Shown piece by piece: positions 2 through 16,233 of a stretch of DNA of 18,442 nucleotides; the first letter of the stretch is position 1; every line of letters begins with the position of its first letter. Under the pieces are notes generated by a model. It was not told where the DNA came from and made no database searches. It saw only the letters and a program-made list of their open reading frames with translations. The stretch is from Promethearchaeota archaeon (GTDB lineage: Archaea; Asgardarchaeota; Lokiarchaeia; Sigyniarchaeales; SOKP01): the NCBI GenBank assembly GCA_019058015.1, contig JAHLWH010000199.1, positions 1 to 18,442 of the forward strand. Reading direction: 5' to 3'. The position numbers were made by a program, and so were the translations under genes.

Positions 2-1204
2 ATCAATAGAGATTTTTAAATTAATCGTTTCCAAAAATTCATTTAATAATTTTTGGAATTTATATAGCCAAATACCTAATTTCTTTAAAGATTTTATTTT
101 GCTTTCAATCTCATTACTATCAAATTCTTCTAACCCTTTCGAAAAAAAGTCGTCTAAATTGGATTTAAACAGATTTAAATCCTTTATTAAGAGATCACTT
201 TCATTTTTAAAATACTTTTGATTGAAACTTTCAATTTTTATAATTTCTTTAGTGATATTTGCAATATTTGATTTGATTAAGCTTATCGGTCTTATATGAG
301 ATAGTTCTTTTAAACCAGATTCTGTTATTTCATCCAATTTATTTAAATCAATAACTTCTTCTAATTCCATTCGAAGATTTTTTATTTTTTTCTTATCAAT
401 TTCAAGATTTTCTTTTAGGTTATGATAAATTTTATCAAATTCTTTAAATTTAGGCATATTCTGATTTAATTTATATTGGGAATTTTCAATTTTTTGCTTG
501 ATATCGTTAATTTTATCTCTTAGAATTTTAGCATTTTTCCTTAGGGTTTCAATTTTTTTATTTTGATCATTACTCTGGCTTTCTTCTTCTCGAGTAAGAA
601 TATTAATCTGATTAAAAATTTCCTTTTGTTCTTTTTTAAATTTAATTTGTGTTTTTTTTAAATTCCCGAGATTTTCTTCAAGCATTTTTTTTTGATTTTT
701 AATGGATAAATAATCCTCTTCAAATAATTTTAATCTAGTGTTATATTTAATAATTGAATCATTTAATTTATTAAATAGAGTTATTTTAGTAGCAATTTCT
801 GCTGATTTATTTCTTTCTTGGGCAATCTTTAATTCGGTATTTAATTTTTTTTTTTCAAAATTGAGCTGGTTTAATTTTAAGAATGAAATACAATTTCCTA
901 AAAAAGAGATATATTTATCTAAAAATTCAATATTTTTTTGAGTTGTTTGAGTATATTTTGCTATAATTTCAATAAAATTAATATTGTCAATCAGACTTTT
1001 CTGTTCTTTAGAATTTTTTTTATATAAAATCAGTAACTTTTCTAAGCTTATTTTTGGAATTTCATCAAGAAGGTAGATATAATTACCCAATTGAAGTTGA
1101 TCTAAATCCTGAGAAAGAAATTTACCTTGAATAATATTAAATTTATTTTTTATTTCTACTGAAAAATCTTTAATTTTTATTATAAATGAATCAGAATTAA
1201 TCAG
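2..1204 (-). CDS. Long coiled-coil protein, 3'-truncated by the window edge (>=400 aa); missing from the ORF track
   Basis: My translation of the minus strand is open from 1204 to 2 (LINSDSFIIKIKDFSVEIKNKF...KLNTELKIAQERNKSAEIATK...KNAKILRDKINDIKQKIENSQYKLN...NEFLETINLKISID), with extensive K/E/L heptads. An in-frame TAA lies five codons upstream. The start is most likely CTG at 1204 or ATT at 1201, both overlapping the upstream gene's TGA and following an AGAGGT SD-like motif. Confidence 0.85.
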   Translation of the reverse strand, partial: MINSDSFIIKIKDFSVEIKNKFNIIQGKFLSQDLDQLQLGNYIYLLDEIPKISLEKLLILYKKNSKEQKSLIDNINFIEIIAKYTQTTQKNIEFLDKYISFLGNCISFLKLNQLNFEKKKLNTELKIAQERNKSAEIATKITLFNKLNDSIIKYNTRLKLFEEDYLSIKNQKKMLEENLGNLKKTQIKFKKEQKEIFNQINILTREEESQSNDQNKKIETLRKNAKILRDKINDIKQKIENSQYKLNQNMPKFKEFDKIYHNLKENLEIDKKKIKNLRMELEEVIDLNKLDEITESGLKELSHIRPISLIKSNIANITKEIIKIESFNQKYFKNESDLLIKDLNLFKSNLDDFFSKGLEEFDSNEIESKIKSLKKLGIWLYKFQKLLNEFLETINLKISID

Positions 1205-2268
1205 TCTAAACCTCTTTTAGTTTTTTTTTGAATTTTATTTAAGTGTTTTTCAAATTCTTCTTCCTTTTTTTGCTTTCTTTTTCTAATAACTTTTAAAGGA
1301 TCGATATCAGCTTCATTATTTTCTATTATATCTCTACTAAATATATCTTGTTTTGTGGTTTGGGTTGATTCTTCTTTCTTTTCCATTTCCTTTTTTTTAT
1401 CAGCAGGAGGGTGTTCTTTTTTTTCTAATTTAGATAAAGAATCTAATTTTTTTCTTTTTTTTTTACGTTTTAATCTTTGAAATTCATCTTCGGAAAGAGT
1501 AAATAATTTATCATAAGATTTGAATCGTGTATCTTGTTTTTCTTTTAATCTATCAAGCTCATCCATTTTCTTTTTTTTGTCTAAAGTAATCTTTTGGGTG
1601 GCAAATTTATTTTTAGGAAATCTGGATTCTGAAGTTATCATGAATTCTTTAAAAGAAATTTTGTTTTTTATGTATTCTTTTTTAAACTCATTAATAATTT
1701 TATAGTCAATGTTTTTAGGAATTTTATTTAGTTCAATATTTAATAGTCGTTCCATCTCATTTTGATAAAATTTTTTTATTTTATTTAGGGTTGTTAAAAA
1801 ATCAGGGTTATTCTTTAATACATCAACTATTGACTCCCAAAAATCAACATCGAGTGAAAAAATAAAACTTGTTTTTTCTAAAAAAGATGATACTTTCTTG
1901 TTTTTAATTAATGAAATACCGACTTTTTTAAGAGAGTCTTGAGAAATGTTTTTTTCTGTTAAAATGTTTTTTATTGTAAGAATATATTGAGATAATAGTA
2001 AGTCTTTAAACAATAACCAATTTTCTAAGTTAAGTTCAGAGTTTTTAGATAAATTTGAATATATTGCTTCTAATAAGTTATCTAAATCATTAAAAAATTT
2101 TTTTCTGTCATTCTCTATTAGATCTGGTTTTTTGAGAAAATTTTTTAGAGTTTCTTTATAATTGAGATATAATTTACTAATTAAATTTAATTTTCCTTGA
2201 ATTATATCTATAGAATTAGTTAATTCTTTTATTCTATCTACAGAAAAGATTATATTCTCTGATTCCAT
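1201..2268 (-). CDS. Hypothetical protein with helical N-terminus and highly charged K/E-rich C-terminus
   Basis: 355-aa ORF with ATG start, co-oriented with its neighbours; its stop overlaps the next gene's start. No recognisable motif. Confidence 0.8.
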   Translation of the reverse strand: MESENIIFSVDRIKELTNSIDIIQGKLNLISKLYLNYKETLKNFLKKPDLIENDRKKFFNDLDNLLEAIYSNLSKNSELNLENWLLFKDLLLSQYILTIKNILTEKNISQDSLKKVGISLIKNKKVSSFLEKTSFIFSLDVDFWESIVDVLKNNPDFLTTLNKIKKFYQNEMERLLNIELNKIPKNIDYKIINEFKKEYIKNKISFKEFMITSESRFPKNKFATQKITLDKKKKMDELDRLKEKQDTRFKSYDKLFTLSEDEFQRLKRKKKRKKLDSLSKLEKKEHPPADKKKEMEKKEESTQTTKQDIFSRDIIENNEADIDPLKVIRKRKQKKEEEFEKHLNKIQKKTKRGLD

Positions 2269-2330
2269 CTTTCGATTTTTTATTTATTATTTTTATATAA
2301 TCAACAGGAAATTTTTGGATATATTAATTA

Positions 2331-3407
2331 TTAAATTTCACGAGGACCTTCAAGATGATTATGGTTTATTCTTAATATTTTTTTATCCCTGGAATATTTC
2401 CTTTCAGAAGCACTCAAAAAATATTGTTGTTCAACATGGATTTTAGTACCTCCCACTAATTCCAAGGAATGGACAAAATTTTCATAAGTTAAAATGTCAG
2501 ATTTTAATGCTTTAAATAGAGCAACTCTCACTCCACGCTCTAAATCTGCACCTGTGTATCCACGCGTTAAAAATAAAATTCCTCTATTTTCGATAATTGT
2601 TTTATCATTCCATAATGCATTCGAATCTTGTATGGATTTCTTTTTACTCATTAAAGATTTTAATTTTTCTTCCTTAGATTTTAATAATGCATATTCTTTG
2701 TTTAAACTAACAAGAATTACATCATCTACCCCAATTTTTGCGTTACTAATTTTATTAATAAAAGACTCAATTATTTTTTTCCTGAGATGAAATGAAGGAA
2801 AATCAAATTTCAAATGAAATGTAAATCTTCTCCAGATTGCAGAGTCTAATTGGTCTTGATGGTTAGTAGCACCTATAATTGCTAATGGTGTTCCAAAGTA
2901 ATTTATTTTATCAATTATTTGTAAGAAAGATATTACAGCTCTTTTAATTTCGCCTACTTCGTGAATATTCGATCTTTCAGAAGCAATTGCGTCAATTTCA
3001 TCAAAAAATAATATAAAAGCTCCATTTTCTTCAGCAATCTGAGCTGATAATTCCACTACTTTTCTAATATTTTTAACGGTATCGCCTAATAGTGCAGAAA
3101 CTAATCTGTCAGACTCTACTACACACAATGGGATATCAAATTCCTTTGCAAATGCTCGAGTTAAAGAAGTTTTTCCAGTTCCAGGTGGTCCATATAGGAG
3201 GACAGTTAAATTTGGAACTAATTTAGTCTTTTTCAATTTTTCAACAACTTCGGTATATTTTTTTAACGAACTGAAAAAATCTTCAAGCCTTTCCTTTAGA
3301 ACCTCATTTCCTAATATATCACTAACATTCTCTATTATTTCATTCGGTAAATAAACCGTTCCATACTTATCAAGCCTTTCTTTAATTTCATCATCTGTAT
3401 ATGTAAT
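2331..3407 (-). CDS. Single-domain classical AAA+ ATPase; true start probably ATT at 3407 rather than TTG at 3236
   Basis: Walker A GPPGTGKT, Walker B ILFFDEID, sensor-1 GATN, second region of homology LDSAIWRRF, lid GYTGADL. The frame stays open for 59 codons upstream of 3236 and encodes VSDILGNEVLKERLEDFF, matching the conserved 'DIxG.e.vK..l.e' opening of AAA domains. Confidence 0.9.
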   Translation of the reverse strand: MTYTDDEIKERLDKYGTVYLPNEIIENVSDILGNEVLKERLEDFFSSLKKYTEVVEKLKKTKLVPNLTVLLYGPPGTGKTSLTRAFAKEFDIPLCVVESDRLVSALLGDTVKNIRKVVELSAQIAEENGAFILFFDEIDAIASERSNIHEVGEIKRAVISFLQIIDKINYFGTPLAIIGATNHQDQLDSAIWRRFTFHLKFDFPSFHLRKKIIESFINKISNAKIGVDDVILVSLNKEYALLKSKEEKLKSLMSKKKSIQDSNALWNDKTIIENRGILFLTRGYTGADLERGVRVALFKALKSDILTYENFVHSLELVGGTKIHVEQQYFLSASERKYSRDKKILRINHNHLEGPREI

Positions 3408-3413
3408 TTTTTC

Positions 3414-4682
3414 TTACACCCCTTCTTTATTTTTTTTTCTTATTTTATTTAAATATTCACTTAAATCTAAAATTAGTTCCTTAATGCAATCTATGCTAGA
3501 ACCTGCAAAATTAAAAATTTCTTTTCTATATTGGACAGAATCCCGGATTTTCATCCTATCTAATTTTAAATAGTTATTAAAGCATAGAAGTTTCATCATA
3601 TAAGGTATTACTTTTTCTTGAGTTTTCAAACTAGTAAAAATAGGATAGAAAATATTATGATCACTTAATTGACATTTTAAAATTGTCGAAAAAATAATAA
3701 ACGCAAATGTCATAGAAATCCAATTAATTAGTTCTTTAGATAAAAAACCTCGACGTAAAGAAACGAAGGCAAGATAACTTAAAATTAGAGTCTCATTACT
3801 GAATTGAGGTATCAACCTAATCTTGCCATCGGATTGTTTATTTTCTCTAATGAAATCATTTTTAATTAACACATCTATAAAATCATACTTAGGAGCAAGA
3901 AAAATTTCATCTAGAACTCTTAATCCTAAGCGTTCGCAAATTTTTTCAATTGCTTCTTGCTCTTCATGAGCAATATTATCAATAAACGCTTCAAAAACAT
4001 CATTGATCAAGATTACCGGAATTTCTATGTTAGAATCTTCAGGACAAGGATAATAATTAGGATCCAAGTTGTATAAAGAGGTTATATTATTAATTATTTG
4101 GTATAATTTTGGAGAAATACCGGGAATTTCGAAGAAATCCGGGTTATCCACAGTTTCCCTATAATATGTATGTGGGATCATCATATACCTTTGACATTCA
4201 TACCAATTTACTGATGTTTTATTCAACTTCATATAAATTTCTTCAAAATTTTTACCAATAGGCAACAAAAGATCTTCTAAATATTTGTAAAGAAGATATA
4301 AATATGTAGAATTTAATTTTTTTTGATCTGGGTTTGTAATATTTATTAATATTTGTAAAGCACTTATGCATTCATCAAAAAATTCAATTAGATAATCTTT
4401 AATATCTATAGGCTCTAAATCCTCAGAATATTTGTATATAAAATTTTTAATATTTTCAAATACTTTACCTCTATAATATGCCGAGAATTCGGATAAAGCC
4501 CTCACTCTCTTCACTAATCGTTTTTCTTCGTCCATTTTTATCTTATCAAAAATCTTTATGTCCATCATCACTTCCAAACTCATATTTTGGACAGTTCTTT
4601 TTGTTTCTTTGAGGATTGGAACCAGATGACTTAAATATGTTAGATATCTTGCGAAAATGTCTGTCCATTTTTCTCTAACCAT
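3414..4682 (-). CDS. Hypothetical protein (422 aa, mainly helical)
   Basis: Long ORF, ATG preceded by AGGAG, tightly packed in the cluster. The segment FIDVLIKNDFIRENKQSDGKIRLIP could be a winged-helix wing (weak). Confidence 0.8.
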   Translation of the reverse strand: MVREKWTDIFARYLTYLSHLVPILKETKRTVQNMSLEVMMDIKIFDKIKMDEEKRLVKRVRALSEFSAYYRGKVFENIKNFIYKYSEDLEPIDIKDYLIEFFDECISALQILINITNPDQKKLNSTYLYLLYKYLEDLLLPIGKNFEEIYMKLNKTSVNWYECQRYMMIPHTYYRETVDNPDFFEIPGISPKLYQIINNITSLYNLDPNYYPCPEDSNIEIPVILINDVFEAFIDNIAHEEQEAIEKICERLGLRVLDEIFLAPKYDFIDVLIKNDFIRENKQSDGKIRLIPQFSNETLILSYLAFVSLRRGFLSKELINWISMTFAFIIFSTILKCQLSDHNIFYPIFTSLKTQEKVIPYMMKLLCFNNYLKLDRMKIRDSVQYRKEIFNFAGSSIDCIKELILDLSEYLNKIRKKNKEGV

Positions 4683-8201: not shown

Positions 8202-8933
8202 ATGGGCCGAAGGAAGAAAAGAAAGAAAATTTATAAAAAATCGCGCAAACTTCCCAAAATCTTCACATGTCCATCATGTGGCTCTAAATCAGTTAAAATA
8301 GAGAAGAAAATAAAGTTAATTACATATTCAATAAAATGTATTGATTGTGAGCTAGAATGGGAGGCACATCTGCGCTCAGAAAATGAGTTATATGATATAA
8401 ATGGGGAAAATGTAAAAAACTGCTCTATTTGTGGTGGAAAATTAAAAAAAACAGAATTAAAAGATAAAATTGTCAATTTAGTTGAAGTTAAATGCGGAAC
8501 TTGCGGATTACAAAAAGAGGTTTTAGCCCGTTCTATTGAAGCTGCTGTAGATTTTTATGGGTCATTTATTGACATATATTTTACAGATCAAGAATATCAT
8601 CGTTTAAAGGGTAATATTAAAGAACATCAAAAAGAGAAAAATTGGAACGAATTAGCTTTAACTTATTCACTTCTATCAGATATTACAAAAATTAAAGCCT
8701 CAGAATTATCTAAAGAATATATTTCAACAGGAGAAGAAGAATTACTAGAAGAATCTAATAAATGGAGAGATGAAGCAGCAAACTATAAATTATTAGAAAG
8801 AGATTTACGTGAAAAAATTAAACAAGAAGGTACTGGCGTTGATCTTGAGGAAGAAATAGAGGTAGAAGAAAAACTAGCAAAAGATAAAACGCTTGAAGAG
8901 GTTTTTGATGATCCAGGATTCCTAGAGTGGTAA
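8202..8933 (+). CDS. elf1: Transcription elongation factor Elf1 homologue with an inserted second Zn ribbon and a C-terminal helical/acidic extension
   Basis: Basic N-terminus MGRRKKRKK, LPKIFTCPSCG, and later VKCGTCGL...AVDFYGSFID, matching the Elf1 pattern (F.CP.C ... C..C ... vDvY..wiD). Confidence 0.85.
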   Translation: MGRRKKRKKIYKKSRKLPKIFTCPSCGSKSVKIEKKIKLITYSIKCIDCELEWEAHLRSENELYDINGENVKNCSICGGKLKKTELKDKIVNLVEVKCGTCGLQKEVLARSIEAAVDFYGSFIDIYFTDQEYHRLKGNIKEHQKEKNWNELALTYSLLSDITKIKASELSKEYISTGEEELLEESNKWRDEAANYKLLERDLREKIKQEGTGVDLEEEIEVEEKLAKDKTLEEVFDDPGFLEW

Positions 8934-8937
8934 TCTT

Positions 8938-10704
8938 TTAAAATTTTTCTTTTAATTTAGAAACTCTATTTCTTATTGATTGTTTTGGGTTTTTAGCGAA
9001 GATAATCTTTTCATTTGGATAAGATTTAAAATAATTCATAATTTCATCTGGGATATTTTCCCAAATTGGTATTTTTACGAAATAATCGAAAAAATGTTTA
9101 AATTTTATATTTTTCTTTTTGAAAAAATAAGCCCATCTATAATATGCTATTCGATTGAACGTTTTTATTAAACTGATACCCATTGGATTATACTTGGAAC
9201 TTAAGAACGTTGCGAGGTAAGACCACATTTTTTGAGTTTGTGGTATAGATTCTGGATAAACAGAATCTGATAAAGGTCGTATAAAAATCTCATGAATTGT
9301 TATAATTGGTATCAATTCATCTACTAATTTTAATATTTTTTCTCTATAATTAGGATCATTAACAGACATTGTAGTAATTTTCATCATTTTTCTTTTTGCA
9401 TAATTAAGATGTCTCTCTTTAAAATATAACCACATCTTTGCCATGTCATCTCTTAATTCCTCAAGCTTTTCAATGATTTTTTCTTCATTGAACTCGATTT
9501 TATATTTATTTCCATATTTCCTTACTAATTTTAATAAAATTGAATCAGATTCTTCTTGTTCTAATTCATATAATCCATTTCCCTCTTGAGTATAACTGAG
9601 CTTATGTTGTTTAGGAGAATGAACTGTATGAGTATATAATGGAGTAGTCCATAATTTTTGTCTAATTTTATCTAAGATAATATTTGTTAACTCAATATCT
9701 TTTACTTTTTGCAAGTCTTTCGATAAAGGAATAACTTTTCCTTTCCTTAATTTAAATCTTATTTTATCAATAAGTGAAAATTCCTTTAATTTTTCTGCGA
9801 TTTCCTTTCTTAATTCTTTAATTCTTAGAGTAATAGCGTTATTAGATGAAATTAATTTTTTAATATAAGGGTAAAAATCAATATGATATTTTTTTTTTAT
9901 AAAAGTATTATCAATAAGGGGGATTTCCTTAAATCTTTGCCCTCTATATTTCAAAATACTCATTGCATGATCTCCTATTGAATAAGAAAATACAACATTT
10001 TCTAAGGTTTGATTTAAATTATCATAATTTCCGATTAATTTAGGTCTTTTTATTTTATAACCATGTAAAAGTGTGTCAACTCCTTTAAATCCATCTTTAA
10101 ATTCTGAAATTATCACAGATTCAAATTCTCCAGGATGATGTCTATTTAAATTAAAACGTTTTTCAACAAGGGAATTCGCTTGATTTACTTTATGAAAAAC
10201 TGTATAGCCCCATTTTAATAATGGATTAAGGAATCTCAATAAACCAATATTATGTTCATAAAATAAGGGATTAAAAATGATTGGAAAACCAAATCCACGA
10301 GAAAAATTGTAAATAAACTGAAATACAGACCTTTTTTTTTCATTTGGTAATACACCTGGAAAATCAAAGTTAAATGCAACTCGTGGAAAAACAGCATCCA
10401 TTCCAAGATTCATCCATGCCTCAAACAAATGTATTGCATCGGGAAATCGAAAAGCATCATTTTTTTTCATAAATTCTATATTTAGAGAATTCAATGTGCT
10501 CGGAACAGAAAATAACCAATCGGAATTTTCTTCTAATTCTTTTATACTCTTTTTAAATCTTTTTAAAACAATTGGTTTCATTTTTTTTTGAATATCCTTC
10601 TTTTTTCTATAGTAATTATTCATCACTCGTAATAGTGATATAATTTCTAGAACCCTCTTCTGAGAATCATGTATTACCTTTACTGTTTTTATATTTTCAG
10701 TCAT
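8938..10704 (-). CDS. Hypothetical protein (588 aa, basic, aromatic-rich)
   Basis: Long uninterrupted ORF converging on elf1 with a 4-bp gap; no family motif recognised. Confidence 0.8.
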   Translation of the reverse strand: MTENIKTVKVIHDSQKRVLEIISLLRVMNNYYRKKKDIQKKMKPIVLKRFKKSIKELEENSDWLFSVPSTLNSLNIEFMKKNDAFRFPDAIHLFEAWMNLGMDAVFPRVAFNFDFPGVLPNEKKRSVFQFIYNFSRGFGFPIIFNPLFYEHNIGLLRFLNPLLKWGYTVFHKVNQANSLVEKRFNLNRHHPGEFESVIISEFKDGFKGVDTLLHGYKIKRPKLIGNYDNLNQTLENVVFSYSIGDHAMSILKYRGQRFKEIPLIDNTFIKKKYHIDFYPYIKKLISSNNAITLRIKELRKEIAEKLKEFSLIDKIRFKLRKGKVIPLSKDLQKVKDIELTNIILDKIRQKLWTTPLYTHTVHSPKQHKLSYTQEGNGLYELEQEESDSILLKLVRKYGNKYKIEFNEEKIIEKLEELRDDMAKMWLYFKERHLNYAKRKMMKITTMSVNDPNYREKILKLVDELIPIITIHEIFIRPLSDSVYPESIPQTQKMWSYLATFLSSKYNPMGISLIKTFNRIAYYRWAYFFKKKNIKFKHFFDYFVKIPIWENIPDEIMNYFKSYPNEKIIFAKNPKQSIRNRVSKLKEKF

Positions 10705-10992: not shown

Positions 10993-11400
10993 TTATATTT
11001 TTTTTCTTTTAGAAAACAATTCTTTGAGCTCTCCCATAATAGCACCTCTTAGAGAGATTGGATTAGCTGCTCTCGCTGGTTCAGGACCAGCGGGTGGACG
11101 TCCCGGAGGTGGTGGAGGCGCTCCTGGCGGAGGTGGTGGAGCTCCTGGGGAGCGAGCCAGACTTCCAGCTCCTGCTGATACAGCCGTAGCTCCTTGAGCA
11201 GTTCTTGTTTCCAGTGAAGTGAGCCTTCCTTCAATTGAAGAAATTCTTGAATTTATAACAGATAAGCTTTGATCTACTAAATTGGGAATTTTTAACACAA
11301 TTTTCATTATACTTTCAATGATATCTGCAAGTCCTTGGAGTTTTTCATCAAGTGGTGCTTTCCGGGTTGCAGCTAACATTGAATTAAATTCTTCGGCTAT
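10993..11400 (-). CDS. Small coiled-coil + polyproline + C-terminal basic amphipathic helix protein (candidate actin regulator); start ATA 11400 or ATG 11379
   Basis: Heptads LSVINSRISSIEGRLTSLETR, a Gly/Ala linker, PGAPPPPPGAPPPPPGRPP, then LRGAIMGELKELFSKRKKI. In-frame ATA-GCC-GAA-GAA-TTT-AAT-TCA precedes the ATG, and an AGGGG motif lies 9 nt upstream of the ATA. Confidence 0.8.
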   Translation of the reverse strand: MAEEFNSMLAATRKAPLDEKLQGLADIIESIMKIVLKIPNLVDQSLSVINSRISSIEGRLTSLETRTAQGATAVSAGAGSLARSPGAPPPPPGAPPPPPGRPPAGPEPARAANPISLRGAIMGELKELFSKRKKI

Positions 11401-11523
11401 TTTTATCTTCCCCTATGAAAAAAAAATTTTTCTATATAATTATAATCGATTAAATATTTATTTTTAATTATTTACCTTTTTATTTTTCAATGATTCTAAA
11501 CCAATATTTAAATTTTTTTAAAT

Positions 11524-12144
11524 TCAGTCAAATCCAATAGTAGAATCTTTTAATTTATTCCATAAAGAATTAACTTCATTCCTCGTCGATTCAATATGTT
11601 CAACCTTCTTCAAATAACGTCCTTTAGATCTGTCAAACTCCTTTTGTATGTTTTTAAATTCTTGGTCCAACATTTCTAGTTTCTCTCCTTCAATTAATTT
11701 GTTCTTAGATATTTCGATTTTTAAAGCTTTATGAACAACTGCTTTTCTTTTTGAAGATACATCCTTTAATGCTTCAGTTAATTCTTGAAATTCTTTATGT
11801 AGATATTCTCTTTGTAATCCTAGATCTTTTATGGCGTTAAGAAATTTTTTATTATTTTCATATATTTGTTCATTATCATGAATTATTTTTTGAATTATTT
11901 TCCCATCGTTCTCATCGATATTAGACATTTTTTCTCTTGCTAGTACTTTCATCTGTTTATACACATCTCGAGCAGTTCTTAAAAAAACTTCTCGTGCAGA
12001 ATTTTCTTTGATTATAAGGTCAGATAATTTCATATGCGCTGCTGTAACACTCTTTTGAGAGCCAATCATTTTATTCCAATTCTTTACGAGTTCCACTTCA
12101 AATTTTGCTAAATCTATCTCATCCTCGGGTGTTAATATCGGCAA
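11524..12144 (-). CDS. All-helical ~200-aa protein, possibly BAR-domain-like
   Basis: 206-aa ORF (TTG start), no Pro after residue 6, continuous amphipathic heptads, and a basic patch SSKRKAVVHKALKIEISKNK. The BAR call is an inference from size and pattern. Confidence 0.65.
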   Translation of the reverse strand: MPILTPEDEIDLAKFEVELVKNWNKMIGSQKSVTAAHMKLSDLIIKENSAREVFLRTARDVYKQMKVLAREKMSNIDENDGKIIQKIIHDNEQIYENNKKFLNAIKDLGLQREYLHKEFQELTEALKDVSSKRKAVVHKALKIEISKNKLIEGEKLEMLDQEFKNIQKEFDRSKGRYLKKVEHIESTRNEVNSLWNKLKDSTIGFD

Positions 12145-14466: not shown

Positions 14467-14747
14467 ATAAAAGCATCTGAAGTCTTAAATCTATTGAGAG
14501 TATCAAGACCAACATTAACTAACTACGGAAAACAAGGATTGGATTTAATTTATTTCAAAGATTATTTAGAGAGTCCGGAACCGAGATAATTGTTATTAAT
14601 GATTTAGAGTCTATCTTTACTGAACAAGAAATGTTTCAAGATATTATTTCCTTATTACATTGTTATGCGATGTCAATGTACTCACGGAGAATAAAAGAAT
14701 TCATAAAAAAAAAGAAGGAGGAATTTAAAAACGAGATTAGTGTATAA
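14467..14747 (+). pseudogene. tnpA: IS607 TnpA (serine recombinase) with internal deletion and frameshift
   Basis: From ATA 14467: IKASEVLNLLRVSRPTLTNYGKQGL (MerR-like HTH of IS607 TnpA). In another frame from about 14535: RIGFNLFQRLFRESGTEIIVIND...EQEMFQDIISLLHCYAMSMYSRR...stop at 14747 (IS607 TnpA C-terminus). The catalytic YARVS region is absent. Confidence 0.9.
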
Positions 14748-16008
14748 ATTTAGGTATCATAAAAGTGTTCATTTAGATGTACTATGTTATATTTCCAAAA
14801 AGCTATATAATCACGCAAATTTCTATGTAAGACAAGATTTCTTTAACTTAGAGAATTGGCTTCGCTATCAAGATTTGAATTTTATTTTGAAAAATTCTGA
14901 AAGCTATAAATTATTAAAGGCACAGACGTCTCAACAAATGTTAAAAATCTTAGATAAAAATTGGGTAAGCTTTTTCAACTCACTAAAAGAATGGAGGAAA
15001 AATCGAAAAAAATTCAACGGAAGCCCCAGACCGCCGGGATATAAAGAAGATACTTGTTATTTTCTGATATTTACTAATCAAAACAGTAAAATCGTGAATA
15101 ATAAGATCGTGCTTACCATGTCTAAATTTTTTAAAAGCACTTTCCCTCAATTTAAGGATTCAATAGAAATTAACATTCCTAAATATAAAAATAAAAATTT
15201 TAAGGCATATCAGCAAATACGCATTTTACCAAGAAAAAGATTTTATGAAATTGAAATTATATACATAAAATCGGTGGAGAAATCAAAATTAAATAATGAA
15301 TTATATTTATCTATTGATTTTGGATTGAACAATTTAATAACGGCTGTAGAAAATAGAAATTCTGTGCCAATAATAGTTTCAGGTAAAGTATTAAAATCCA
15401 TTAATAGACGATGGAATAAAAGAAAAGCCAAACTGTATTCTATAAAAGATAAGCAAAAATTAAGGTGGACAACCCAACTTGATTTTATTACCATAAATCG
15501 AAACTCAGTTATTAACGACTATTTACATAAAACATCACAATTTATAGTTGGTTATTGTTTAAAAAAAAAAATAGGAAATATTTGTGTAAGAAAATTGAAA
15601 GATATAAAAAGAAATATAAGAATTGGCAAAAGAAACAATCAAAATTTTGTTAATATCCCAATTCAAAAACTCAAGCAAATGATAACTTATAAAGCTAAAC
15701 TTGTAGGAATTAAGGTCCATGAAGTAGATGAGTCGTATACTTCGAAATGTAGCTCATTGGATTTAGAACCTATTGAAAAACACCATAATTATATTGGGAA
15801 CCGAATTAAAAGAGGGTTGTTTAAAGGCTCAAATTATTTACTCAATGCGGATGTAAATGGAGCCTTAAATATCTTAAGAAAAGTAGTCGGAGATGATTTT
15901 ATACAAGATCTATCCGATAGGGGTTGCTGGTTTCAACCCGTGCGAATAAGGGACATGTTCCAAACTTCACATGAACAATTTTTATTAAAACCTATTAGTA
16001 TTATTTAA
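14740..16008 (+). CDS. tnpB: RNA-guided endonuclease TnpB (IS607-associated)
   Basis: SKKLYNHANF, AQTSQQML, RuvC-I SIDFGLNNL, DYLHKTS, NNQNFVNIP, YKAKLVGI..VDESYTSKC, RIKRGLF, RuvC-III NADVNGALNI. Confidence 0.95.
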   Translation: MYKFRYHKSVHLDVLCYISKKLYNHANFYVRQDFFNLENWLRYQDLNFILKNSESYKLLKAQTSQQMLKILDKNWVSFFNSLKEWRKNRKKFNGSPRPPGYKEDTCYFLIFTNQNSKIVNNKIVLTMSKFFKSTFPQFKDSIEINIPKYKNKNFKAYQQIRILPRKRFYEIEIIYIKSVEKSKLNNELYLSIDFGLNNLITAVENRNSVPIIVSGKVLKSINRRWNKRKAKLYSIKDKQKLRWTTQLDFITINRNSVINDYLHKTSQFIVGYCLKKKIGNICVRKLKDIKRNIRIGKRNNQNFVNIPIQKLKQMITYKAKLVGIKVHEVDESYTSKCSSLDLEPIEKHHNYIGNRIKRGLFKGSNYLLNADVNGALNILRKVVGDDFIQDLSDRGCWFQPVRIRDMFQTSHEQFLLKPISII

Positions 16009-16080: not shown

Positions 16081-16233
16081 TTATTGCTTTTCTAAAGCCT
16101 CTTTTACTTTTTCCAATTCTTCCTTTCTTTTTTCACGTTCGGCTTTTATTCTGTCTACTTCTGTTTGGTCAACAGGGCTTAAAGTTTTACCCTCTTTAAT
16201 CGCTTTCTTTATCTCATCATCAAGTTGTGGCAT
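16081..16233 (-). CDS. Unannotated 50-aa microprotein with a WH2/actobindin-like motif
   Basis: MPQLDDEIKKAIKEGKTLSPVDQTEVDRIKAEREKRKEELEKVKEALEKQ*. ATG preceded by AGGGATAAGGAAA, TATA-like TTATAAATA upstream, T-tracts after the stop, and higher GC than its flanks. Confidence 0.8.
   Translation of the reverse strand: MPQLDDEIKKAIKEGKTLSPVDQTEVDRIKAEREKRKEELEKVKEALEKQ

Follow-up and report, generated by a model that had tools for sequence, protein, structure and literature searches.

An 18,442-nucleotide stretch of DNA from a Promethearchaeota archaeon (contig JAHLWH010000199.1 of assembly GCA_019058015.1; the whole stretch is referred to here as the window) carries on its minus strand a small gene, for which a sequence-only reading had proposed a miniature nucleation-promoting factor made of a BRK1-like coiled coil, two APPPPP tracts and a VASP/WH2-like terminal helix. 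The product of this gene, the small protein, belongs to a modular adaptor family found specifically in Asgard archaea; this family is real, conserved and expressed. The gene and its parts are as follows:

10993..11379, minus strand: open reading frame (ORF) of the small protein, 128 amino acids (aa) from the ATG at 11379, with the stop codon at 10993-10995
11380..11412, minus strand: in-frame upstream extension G-K-I-K-I-A-E-E-F-N-S, encoding the conserved N-terminal 'AEEF' of the family
11272..11358, minus strand: residues 8-36, the most conserved section of the long helix, with M25, I31 and D36 invariant and P32 nearly invariant
11182..11271, minus strand: residues 37-66, a canonical heptad coiled coil with Ile/Leu at a and d
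11062..11181, minus strand: residues 67-106, the disordered Pro/Gly/Ala linker, whose length differs between relatives
11101..11145, minus strand: residues 79-93, GAPPPPPGAPPPPPG, two poly-Pro tracts, with G-x-PPPPPG nearly invariant in the family alignment
10996..11061, minus strand: residues 107-128, the terminal helix with its basic end, in which L110, R111, I114, M115, E117, L118, K119, L121 and F122 are invariant

The small protein is composed of a long helical N-terminal half, a Gly/Ala/Pro linker containing GAPPPPPGAPPPPPG and the terminal stretch SLRGAIMGELKELFSKRKKI. The structure predicted by AlphaFold2 from a 40-sequence alignment showed a helix over residues 10-70, with a block pLDDT (predicted local distance difference test) of 86-96 over residues 11-60, disorder over residues 68-106, and another helix at residues 107-127 (block pLDDT 75-82). 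A clear heptad register was recognised: 83 % of the a/d positions are hydrophobic vs 14-70 % in the six other registers, and between residues 39 and 60 Ile/Leu is found at a as well as d. Residues 8-36 are more hydrophobic than a plain coiled coil and likely form a partner or bundle interface. Runs of PPPPP were present in 6 of the 4300 six-frame ORFs of at least 100 aa in the genome, where 0.095 would be expected from composition, and the small gene is the sole ORF among those 4300 with two such tracts. The coiled coil, the flexible linker, the two APPPPP tracts and the terminal stretch of the sequence-only reading were all confirmed by ORF translation, structure prediction and heptad register. 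Its statement that the gene lies in the most GC-rich DNA of the window was equally correct, as the GC content reaches its maximum of 0.445 at 11001-11400, the remaining window ranging between ~0.17 and 0.37 (second-highest value 0.372). Of the interpretation itself, the three-part architecture proved to be real, conserved and modular; the homology to BRK1 and the membership in the WH2 or VASP families did not hold. Of the five other ORFs of at least 100 aa with PPPPP in this genome, three, located at C200:6365-7732 (-), C55:11048-11653 (+) and C188:1-777 (+), are possible additional poly-Pro ligands, and the two that remain, on contigs C161 and C212, have a near-identical flank in common.

Orthologues were detected at E<=0.01 in 58 out of 61 related genomes and in 27 out of 27 high-quality genomes. 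The window protein matched the family profile with an E-value of 1.4e-55 over positions 1-142 and clearly qualifies as a family member. Across the phylum, the profile found matches at E<=1e-5 in 133 of the 251 genomes sampled. These matches cluster by lineage, being frequent in f1 (51/54), f2 (5/5), f12 (53/59), f8 (4/4) and f13 (5/5), and rare or absent in f19 (0/10), f27 (0/16), f25 (0/7), f10 (2/26) and f17 (3/19). A word-indexed search of a large protein collection delivered 39 proteins of 113-167 aa, all of them named solely 'hypothetical protein' and originating from metagenome-assembled genomes of Loki-, Hod-, Thor- or Promethearchaeota, and an exhaustive HMMER search against 1.84 billion representatives gave 245 clusters (counted at 50 % identity) at E<=1e-3, 85 at E<=1e-10. 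The three-part layout is retained in 20 distant members from other lineages. A conserved terminal helix was essential to the sequence-only reading, and this helix indeed is the best-conserved element of the family, with the consensus [ILM]-x-x-E-L-K-x-[LI]-F-x-K-[RK] and an R usually three to four residues earlier. No account of the family or of an Asgard VASP/WASP-like factor was found in the accessible part of the literature, preprint supplements being outside its scope. One member of 198 aa (L108, G041:C166:7600-9100, ORF 409-1002 on the plus strand) displays a linker of four GGAP[LM]PPGM repeats and PPPPGGPPPPPG, an FH1-like array which precedes the terminal helix.

Weaker matches of the family were identified as the C-termini of Arf/RagA-type GTPases of 400-480 aa (Pfam Arf and Gtr1_RagA, E 1e-19 to 1e-26). 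These fused GTPases harbour a conserved N-terminal extension of ~125 aa, and their tail repeats the full small protein, from the conserved helix and the coiled coil to the Pro-rich linker and the terminal helix. The comparison of the small family with the fused GTPases by hhalign gave a probability of 98.5 % and an E-value of 1.5e-15, with positions 5-146 of the small family aligned on 292-420 of the 424 in the GTPase profile. By this alignment, the C-terminal tail of Arf/Rag-like GTPases and the entire small protein are homologues. Two fused GTPases of 412 and 475 aa belong to another genome of the same genus (G004). None was found in the genome of the window (G000, 94 % complete), where the motif occurs on the small protein only, and profile searches did not find the fused form in G055 or G044 either. 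As these three genomes show no fused form, the small protein seems to work without a fused GTPase. The 'Arf' UYP48373.1 (38.1 kDa) obtained by co-immunoprecipitation (Co-IP) in L. ossiferum is probably not a tail carrier, because no tail-bearing GTPase was found in G055 with two family profiles.

The exhaustive search yielded 22 longer carriers, namely eight Arf/RagA-like proteins, two Ras-like proteins, one leucine-rich repeat (LRR) protein and 11 proteins without Pfam family. When 8000 candidates among longer proteins were scored with the small-family profile, no match was obtained at E<=1e-3, which is weak evidence as proline words crowd the candidates. The parts of the small protein also occur in other combinations. 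Some proteins have kept the N-terminal helix and the coiled coil and end with a Cys-rich motif, and three others (P0189, P0165, P0123) have unrelated N-termini and end with poly-Pro and the helix. The helix was further recognised on a Rab/Ras-like GTPase (L105), where it is internal, on Arf-like proteins of 476-511 aa, and inside a 697-aa protein with a transmembrane-like end (L165). The core motif of the helix was collected from 116 proteins, which were gathered by homology and are thus not independent. A run of at least four Pro was present within 60 residues upstream in 63 of them, always at a distance of 8-29 residues from the motif (median 19). As far as these sequences tell, the unit 'poly-Pro run, 8-29 residues, helix' is portable and recurs on otherwise unrelated proteins.

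The N-terminal helix was evaluated by searching the family profile against all PDB sequences. The best matches were trimeric adhesin stalks and GCN4 fusions (E 2.7e-6), and BRK1 (3p8c_E) was obtained with an E-value of 0.29 and 14.7 bits, at about the 56th place among the 60 matches listed. Dozens of generic coiled coils therefore score better than BRK1, an outcome that the sequence-only reading had itself named as speaking against its BRK1-like coiled coil, and this part of the reading was abandoned. In line with this, Pfam analysis of 40 family members gave sub-threshold coiled-coil families, such as Baculo_PEP_C in 30 of the 40, and the ESM Atlas provided no usable named match for the small protein. 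It is thus highly improbable for the N-terminal helix to be a homologue of BRK1/HSPC300 and for the protein to be what remains, or the forerunner, of a WAVE-type complex subunit, an explanation which could invoke the ungapped resemblance given in the sequence-only reading and the presence of BRK1 among the profile matches. BRK1 homology was rejected, BRK1 ranking beneath many unrelated trimeric and designed coiled coils. The likeness consists of a small protein with one dominant coiled-coil helix; BRK1, however, has neither a Pro-rich arm nor a terminal helix.

In the terminal helix, R, E and K are invariant across paralogues which display ~30 % identity elsewhere. The hydrophobic moment (muH) of the helix is ordinary: the median over 22 tails was 0.20 vs a genome background of 0.22, and the window's own helix was found at the 19th percentile. 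With short windows, the 77th (11 residues) and 60th (14 residues) percentiles were reached. Because residue identity is conserved and the hydrophobic moment is ordinary, the terminal helix was read as a protein-protein docking motif. By these values the helix is predicted to have no marked amphipathicity, and this speaks against a membrane anchor. Among the features of membrane-targeting sequences, a terminal position and a basic flank are present and a high-moment amphipathic sector is absent. An alternative, considered unlikely, is that the basic-ended helix is a membrane-targeting sequence and the Pro-rich stretch a spacer, making the small protein a peripheral membrane scaffold, as a counterpart of the hypervariable C-terminal tails of eukaryotic small GTPases or of MinD/FtsA-type anchors. 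Such an anchor would agree with the motif ending at most 15 residues from the C-terminus in 108 of the 116 carriers, with the net charge of +1 to +4 over 18 residues in 22/22 tails, and with the location of the helix at the ends of small GTPases and beside a BAR-fold gene. It agrees poorly with the hydrophobic moments given above and with the invariance of the acidic E117 and other specific residues across distant paralogues, which is unusual in lipid-binding helices. Moreover, the motif lies further inside the protein in 8 of the 116 carriers and is present in a protein with its own transmembrane-like segment. The hypervariable tails and the MinD/FtsA-type helices share with it the layout in which a GTPase ends with a flexible linker and then a basic C-terminal helix; the residue-specific conservation including the invariant Glu, the ordinary hydrophobic moment and the internal occurrences set the helix apart from them.

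The gene upstream of the small gene codes for a protein with a BAR-like fold:

11524..12144, minus strand: BAR-like-fold neighbour, 206 aa, three long helices

Its predicted structure has a pLDDT of 91.4. The top Foldseek matches of this neighbour were BAR domains (F-BAR, SNX-BAR, I-BAR/IMD and arfaptin), none of them at E<=1e-3. The best template modelling (TM) scores were obtained with arfaptin-2 (4dcn_D, 0.65) and arfaptin (0.61), and the IMD/I-BAR entries 2d1l, 1wdz and 2ykt were also among the matches. The BAR-fold gene is adjacent to the small gene in 14 out of 20 loci, four of which are from one genus, and L014 and L015 show the gene pair in inverted order.

This neighbour and the GTPase fusions bear on a second alternative, in which the same adaptor docks a non-actin partner with its helix, for example the BAR-fold neighbour, or a regulator or effector common to the Arf/Ras-like GTPases with this tail. 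In that case the small protein would represent the GTPase tail in free-standing form, co-oligomerising with the GTPase or competing for its partner. This alternative, which we regard as somewhat doubtful, accounts for several observations. All 10 domain-bearing fusions besides the LRR protein are small GTPases, the small protein aligns along its full length to the GTPase tail, the BAR-fold gene is a frequent neighbour, and arfaptin, its best structural match, is a BAR domain which according to the entry titles was solved with ARL1 and Rac1. The residue-specific conservation and ordinary hydrophobic moment of the helix point to a protein interface as well. A non-actin partner leaves unexplained, however, why poly-Pro runs occur at a fixed short distance from the helix, and the window's genome has the small protein without any fused GTPase, a situation that was also encountered in G055 and G044.

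The preferred reading, held tentatively, is that the small protein is an oligomeric adaptor whose terminal helix docks actin and whose poly-Pro stretch is a ligand site of the polyproline type II (PPII) kind. The coiled coil would form an oligomer, probably a trimer or tetramer, presenting several copies of the arm. The terminal helix would serve to dock a conserved protein partner and not to anchor the protein in lipid, the likeliest partner being actin; it may bind monomeric Lokiactin much as WH2- or DAD-type helices do, with a PPII-binding protein such as profilin being recruited through the poly-Pro tract. An actin gene is present in the window's own genome (L071:1501-2640, minus strand). 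Polymerisable actin could in this way be concentrated by the oligomer at a membrane that is BAR-coated or GTPase-marked, and the adaptor, though no homologue of Ena/VASP or MIM, would act as they do. In its first two turns the terminal helix presumably resembles WH2 or DAD helices, a likeness taken as a lead only.

Expression of the family could be followed in published data on Candidatus Lokiarchaeum ossiferum. The genes flanking the G055 orthologue correspond to UYP45915.1 and UYP45918.1 of this organism by exact look-up, so that the gene order assigns the orthologue to UYP45916.1 (locus GNAMCCOK_02219). The accession was deduced from the flanking genes and the molecular weight, as the exact sequence look-up gave no match; the mass of 16.13 kDa in the published table compares with 16.14 kDa computed for the 152-aa ORF. 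In the accessible tables of that study, UYP45916.1 ranks 462nd in the proteome (PMC13716822, supplementary file 13), for which the main text gives 3,061 expressed proteins, and was detected in the Lokiactin Co-IP with four peptides and nine spectra (PMC13716822). The BAR-fold orthologue UYP46261.1 ranks 46th and shows a Co-IP log2 value of 0.71 with an adjusted p of 0.053; going by the same part of the publication, it is neither 'Bar1' nor 'Bar2' (PMC13716822).

The actin-docking reading has to be weighed against a number of results which speak against it. With regard to the Co-IP, UYP45916.1 was quantified in two out of three actin immunoprecipitations and none out of three IgG controls, and is flagged as not valid by the authors in the table (PMC13716822). 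Among 44 neighbouring rows of the same table, 12 show the same 2 vs 0 pattern and two show 0 vs 2 (PMC13716822). As the pattern is common in the table, the signal is compatible with a link to actin and does not count as support. Concerning the helix, the LKKT/V-type motif that is described, in the part of the paper accessible, as characteristic of WH2-like segments a few residues after the helix (PMC9433394) is not present, since the alignment of 22 tails shows K-[RK]-[RK] and no L-[KR]-[KR]-[VT]. The window protein gave no Pfam domain and no WH2 or VASP family at E<=10, and both are absent among the 25 Pfam families listed for the 40 members. Nine tails compared directly with Pfam WH2 (PF02205) and VASP gave no match (0/9) at E<=10, where HMMER filters discard most matches above E ~0.1. 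A profile of 22 tail sequences retrieved no WH2-bearing chain from the PDB at E<=10, and the hhalign comparison of the tail with the family of the WH2-like microprotein also encoded in the window gave a probability of 4.2 %. The VASP/WH2-like terminal helix of the sequence-only reading was consequently not upheld by Pfam for either the whole protein or the nine tails, nor by the PDB search, and the small family is no homologue of BRK1, WH2 or VASP by any of the sequence comparisons applied.

The distribution of the module weighs in the same direction. No actin-binding domain was present in any of the 22 longer carriers, and among the 207 ORFs of 46 gelsolin loci in 41 genomes, no ORF with a gelsolin domain bears the module. 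One locus combines both (L165, G050:C1:1207800-1212600): a gene with two gelsolin domains, a Pro-rich repeat and a zinc ribbon (ORF 812-1876, plus strand) is followed after 135 nt by the 697-aa ORF (2011-4104, plus strand) with its internal PPPP-plus-helix motif and transmembrane-like C-terminal segment. This adjacency is unconserved, as in the six further genomes that encode a homologue of this 697-aa protein, the homologue never lies on a contig with a gelsolin match. Runs of at least four Pro occur almost throughout the class of the window and frequently in f8, and are not universal across the phylum, the linker elsewhere being simply rich in Pro/Ala/Gly/Ser. The C-terminal position of the motif in most carriers fits an anchor too. 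Finally, Loki and Odin profilins were reported, in the accessible part of the study, not to bind the VASP poly-Pro peptide (PMC8410842); Heimdall LC3 profilin and one Thor profilin bind it weakly (PMC8410842). A search of the window's genome with the Pfam profilin model gave no match and was uninformative, since the control also matched nowhere.

Like eukaryotic actin-assembly factors, the small protein has an oligomerising helix, poly-Pro and a short basic helix in this order. In Ena/VASP proteins, an EVH1 domain is followed by a Pro-rich region and by EVH2, which contains the G- and F-actin-binding sites and a tetramerising coiled coil. An oligomerising coiled coil and poly-Pro tracts ahead of a short basic helix are common to both, and such a multivalent design suits the recruitment of profilin-actin. 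In contrast to Ena/VASP, the small protein has no EVH1, shows no Pfam VASP/WH2 match, is a quarter of the size and carries its coiled coil at the N-terminus instead of the C-terminus. With WH2 (PF02205) and beta-thymosin segments it shares a short helix after a Pro-rich region, with a hydrophobic i/i+3-4 pattern, basic residues thereafter and an occurrence on many unrelated scaffolds; its helix differs by the missing LKKT/V-type motif and by the lack of a Gly break afterwards. MIM/MTSS1 and IRSp53 combine I-BAR/IMD, a Pro-rich region and a C-terminal WH2 or WH2-like segment, and the BAR-type module, Pro-rich region and terminal short helix are found here as well. They are distributed, however, over two adjacent genes and separate polypeptides, and the neighbour has its best TM scores with the arfaptin type of BAR.

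The accessible parts of recent studies give profilins and gelsolins as the known Asgard actin regulators (PMC12050087, PMC13716822), and describe an Asgard nucleation machinery using profilin-poly-Pro contacts as 'yet to be discovered' (PMC9433394). The nucleator or elongator of Lokiactin and the native ligand for the poly-Pro binding of some Asgard profilins appear there as open questions (PMC9433394, PMC8410842). The family is a concrete, abundant and widely conserved candidate for both. Published binding tests were done with a VASP peptide, and never with the native poly-Pro tracts of the family. In its fullest form the proposal would make the family the missing Asgard actin-assembly factor, a coiled-coil oligomer which, by means of poly-Pro and a WH2/DAD-like helix, supplies Lokiactin filaments at BAR-coated membranes with (profilin-)actin, the fused forms being Arf-/Ras-like GTPases with an actin-recruiting tail; taken as a whole, this is quite unlikely. 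If true, the fused forms would link GTPase and actin as a switch on one chain, older than the eukaryotic scheme in which the activation of WAVE/WASP and formins falls to separate Arf/Rac/Cdc42 proteins, and the eukaryotic-looking layout would be convergent or the remnant of a pre-eukaryotic solution. The portable docking helix in any case marks a set of Arf/Ras-like GTPases. Whatever its partner, the helix serves to define a new network based on a short linear motif in Asgard archaea, in which small GTPases are linked with coiled-coil adaptors and a BAR-fold protein. The accessible text of a preprint on Asgard Arf GTPases (10.1101/2024.02.28.582541) mentions neither proline nor coiled coils.

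Other genes of the window recur around the small gene to a variable degree:

8202-8933, plus strand: gene for an Elf1-type zinc ribbon with a long C-terminal extension, adjacent in 9/20 loci
8938-10704, minus strand: 588-aa ORF without Pfam match, directly downstream of the small gene
14740-16008, plus strand: TnpB/OrfB_IS605 gene, between the aRF1/Pelota-like gene and the microprotein gene
16081-16233, minus strand: ORF of a 50-aa WH2-like microprotein, consensus P-Q-L-D-D-E-L-K-x-x-I-K-K-G-V-x-L-x-K-V...

The Elf1-type gene recurs at L005, L011, L013, L018, L019 and L038, and is located directly upstream on the same strand in family f2. The 588-aa ORF keeps its position in nine of the 20 loci (L001-L004, L006, L007, L009, L010, L016). 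The microprotein family is present in 39 out of 61 relatives. In 25 of these 39 genomes, all of family f1, one contig carries both the microprotein gene and the small gene, 3.1-4.8 kb apart. This proximity may be plain family-level synteny, because the genomic block also holds a radical-SAM gene and an aRF1/Pelota-like gene. The distance from the small gene to the microprotein gene is 4.7 kb in the window vs 3.1 kb in three genomes of the same genus, and the insertion of TnpB/OrfB_IS605 is suggested to be private to the window's genome. On another contig of this genome (C272:25996-26748, plus strand, with its end in L134), a 251-aa coiled-coil ORF has a C-terminus which begins with R-x-x-V-x-E-L-K and goes on with G-x-x-L-K-P-I-D, the helix start being like the small family and the continuation like the WH2-type microprotein. 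This ORF may be a bridge between the two motifs; a profile comparison gave no support for it.

The start of the small gene deserves a separate description. The interval 10993..11400 given by the sequence-only reading located the ORF properly, and its end at 11400 falls within the ancestral coding region, as the open frame extends to 11412. In three other genomes of the genus (G001, G002, G004) an ATG start (MIKIAEEF...) is found where the window has AAG at 11407-11409. The ATG form is also present in contigs from two further independent studies (runs X5 and X8), which read T>A at 11408 relative to the window. This ATG of the genus is located four codons above the AEEF of the window; relatives start with M-A-E-E-F, and the window reads A-E-E-F-N-S in frame before its own ATG. 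The AAG is either a private loss of the start codon or a consensus error. With a private loss, the use of the next ATG would remove the conserved AEEF. The linker also varies in nature: at 11174, 9 bases are deleted in frame in one contig of run X8, and substitutions are numerous over 11082-11182. Its length is polymorphic, whereas the region of the helix is not.

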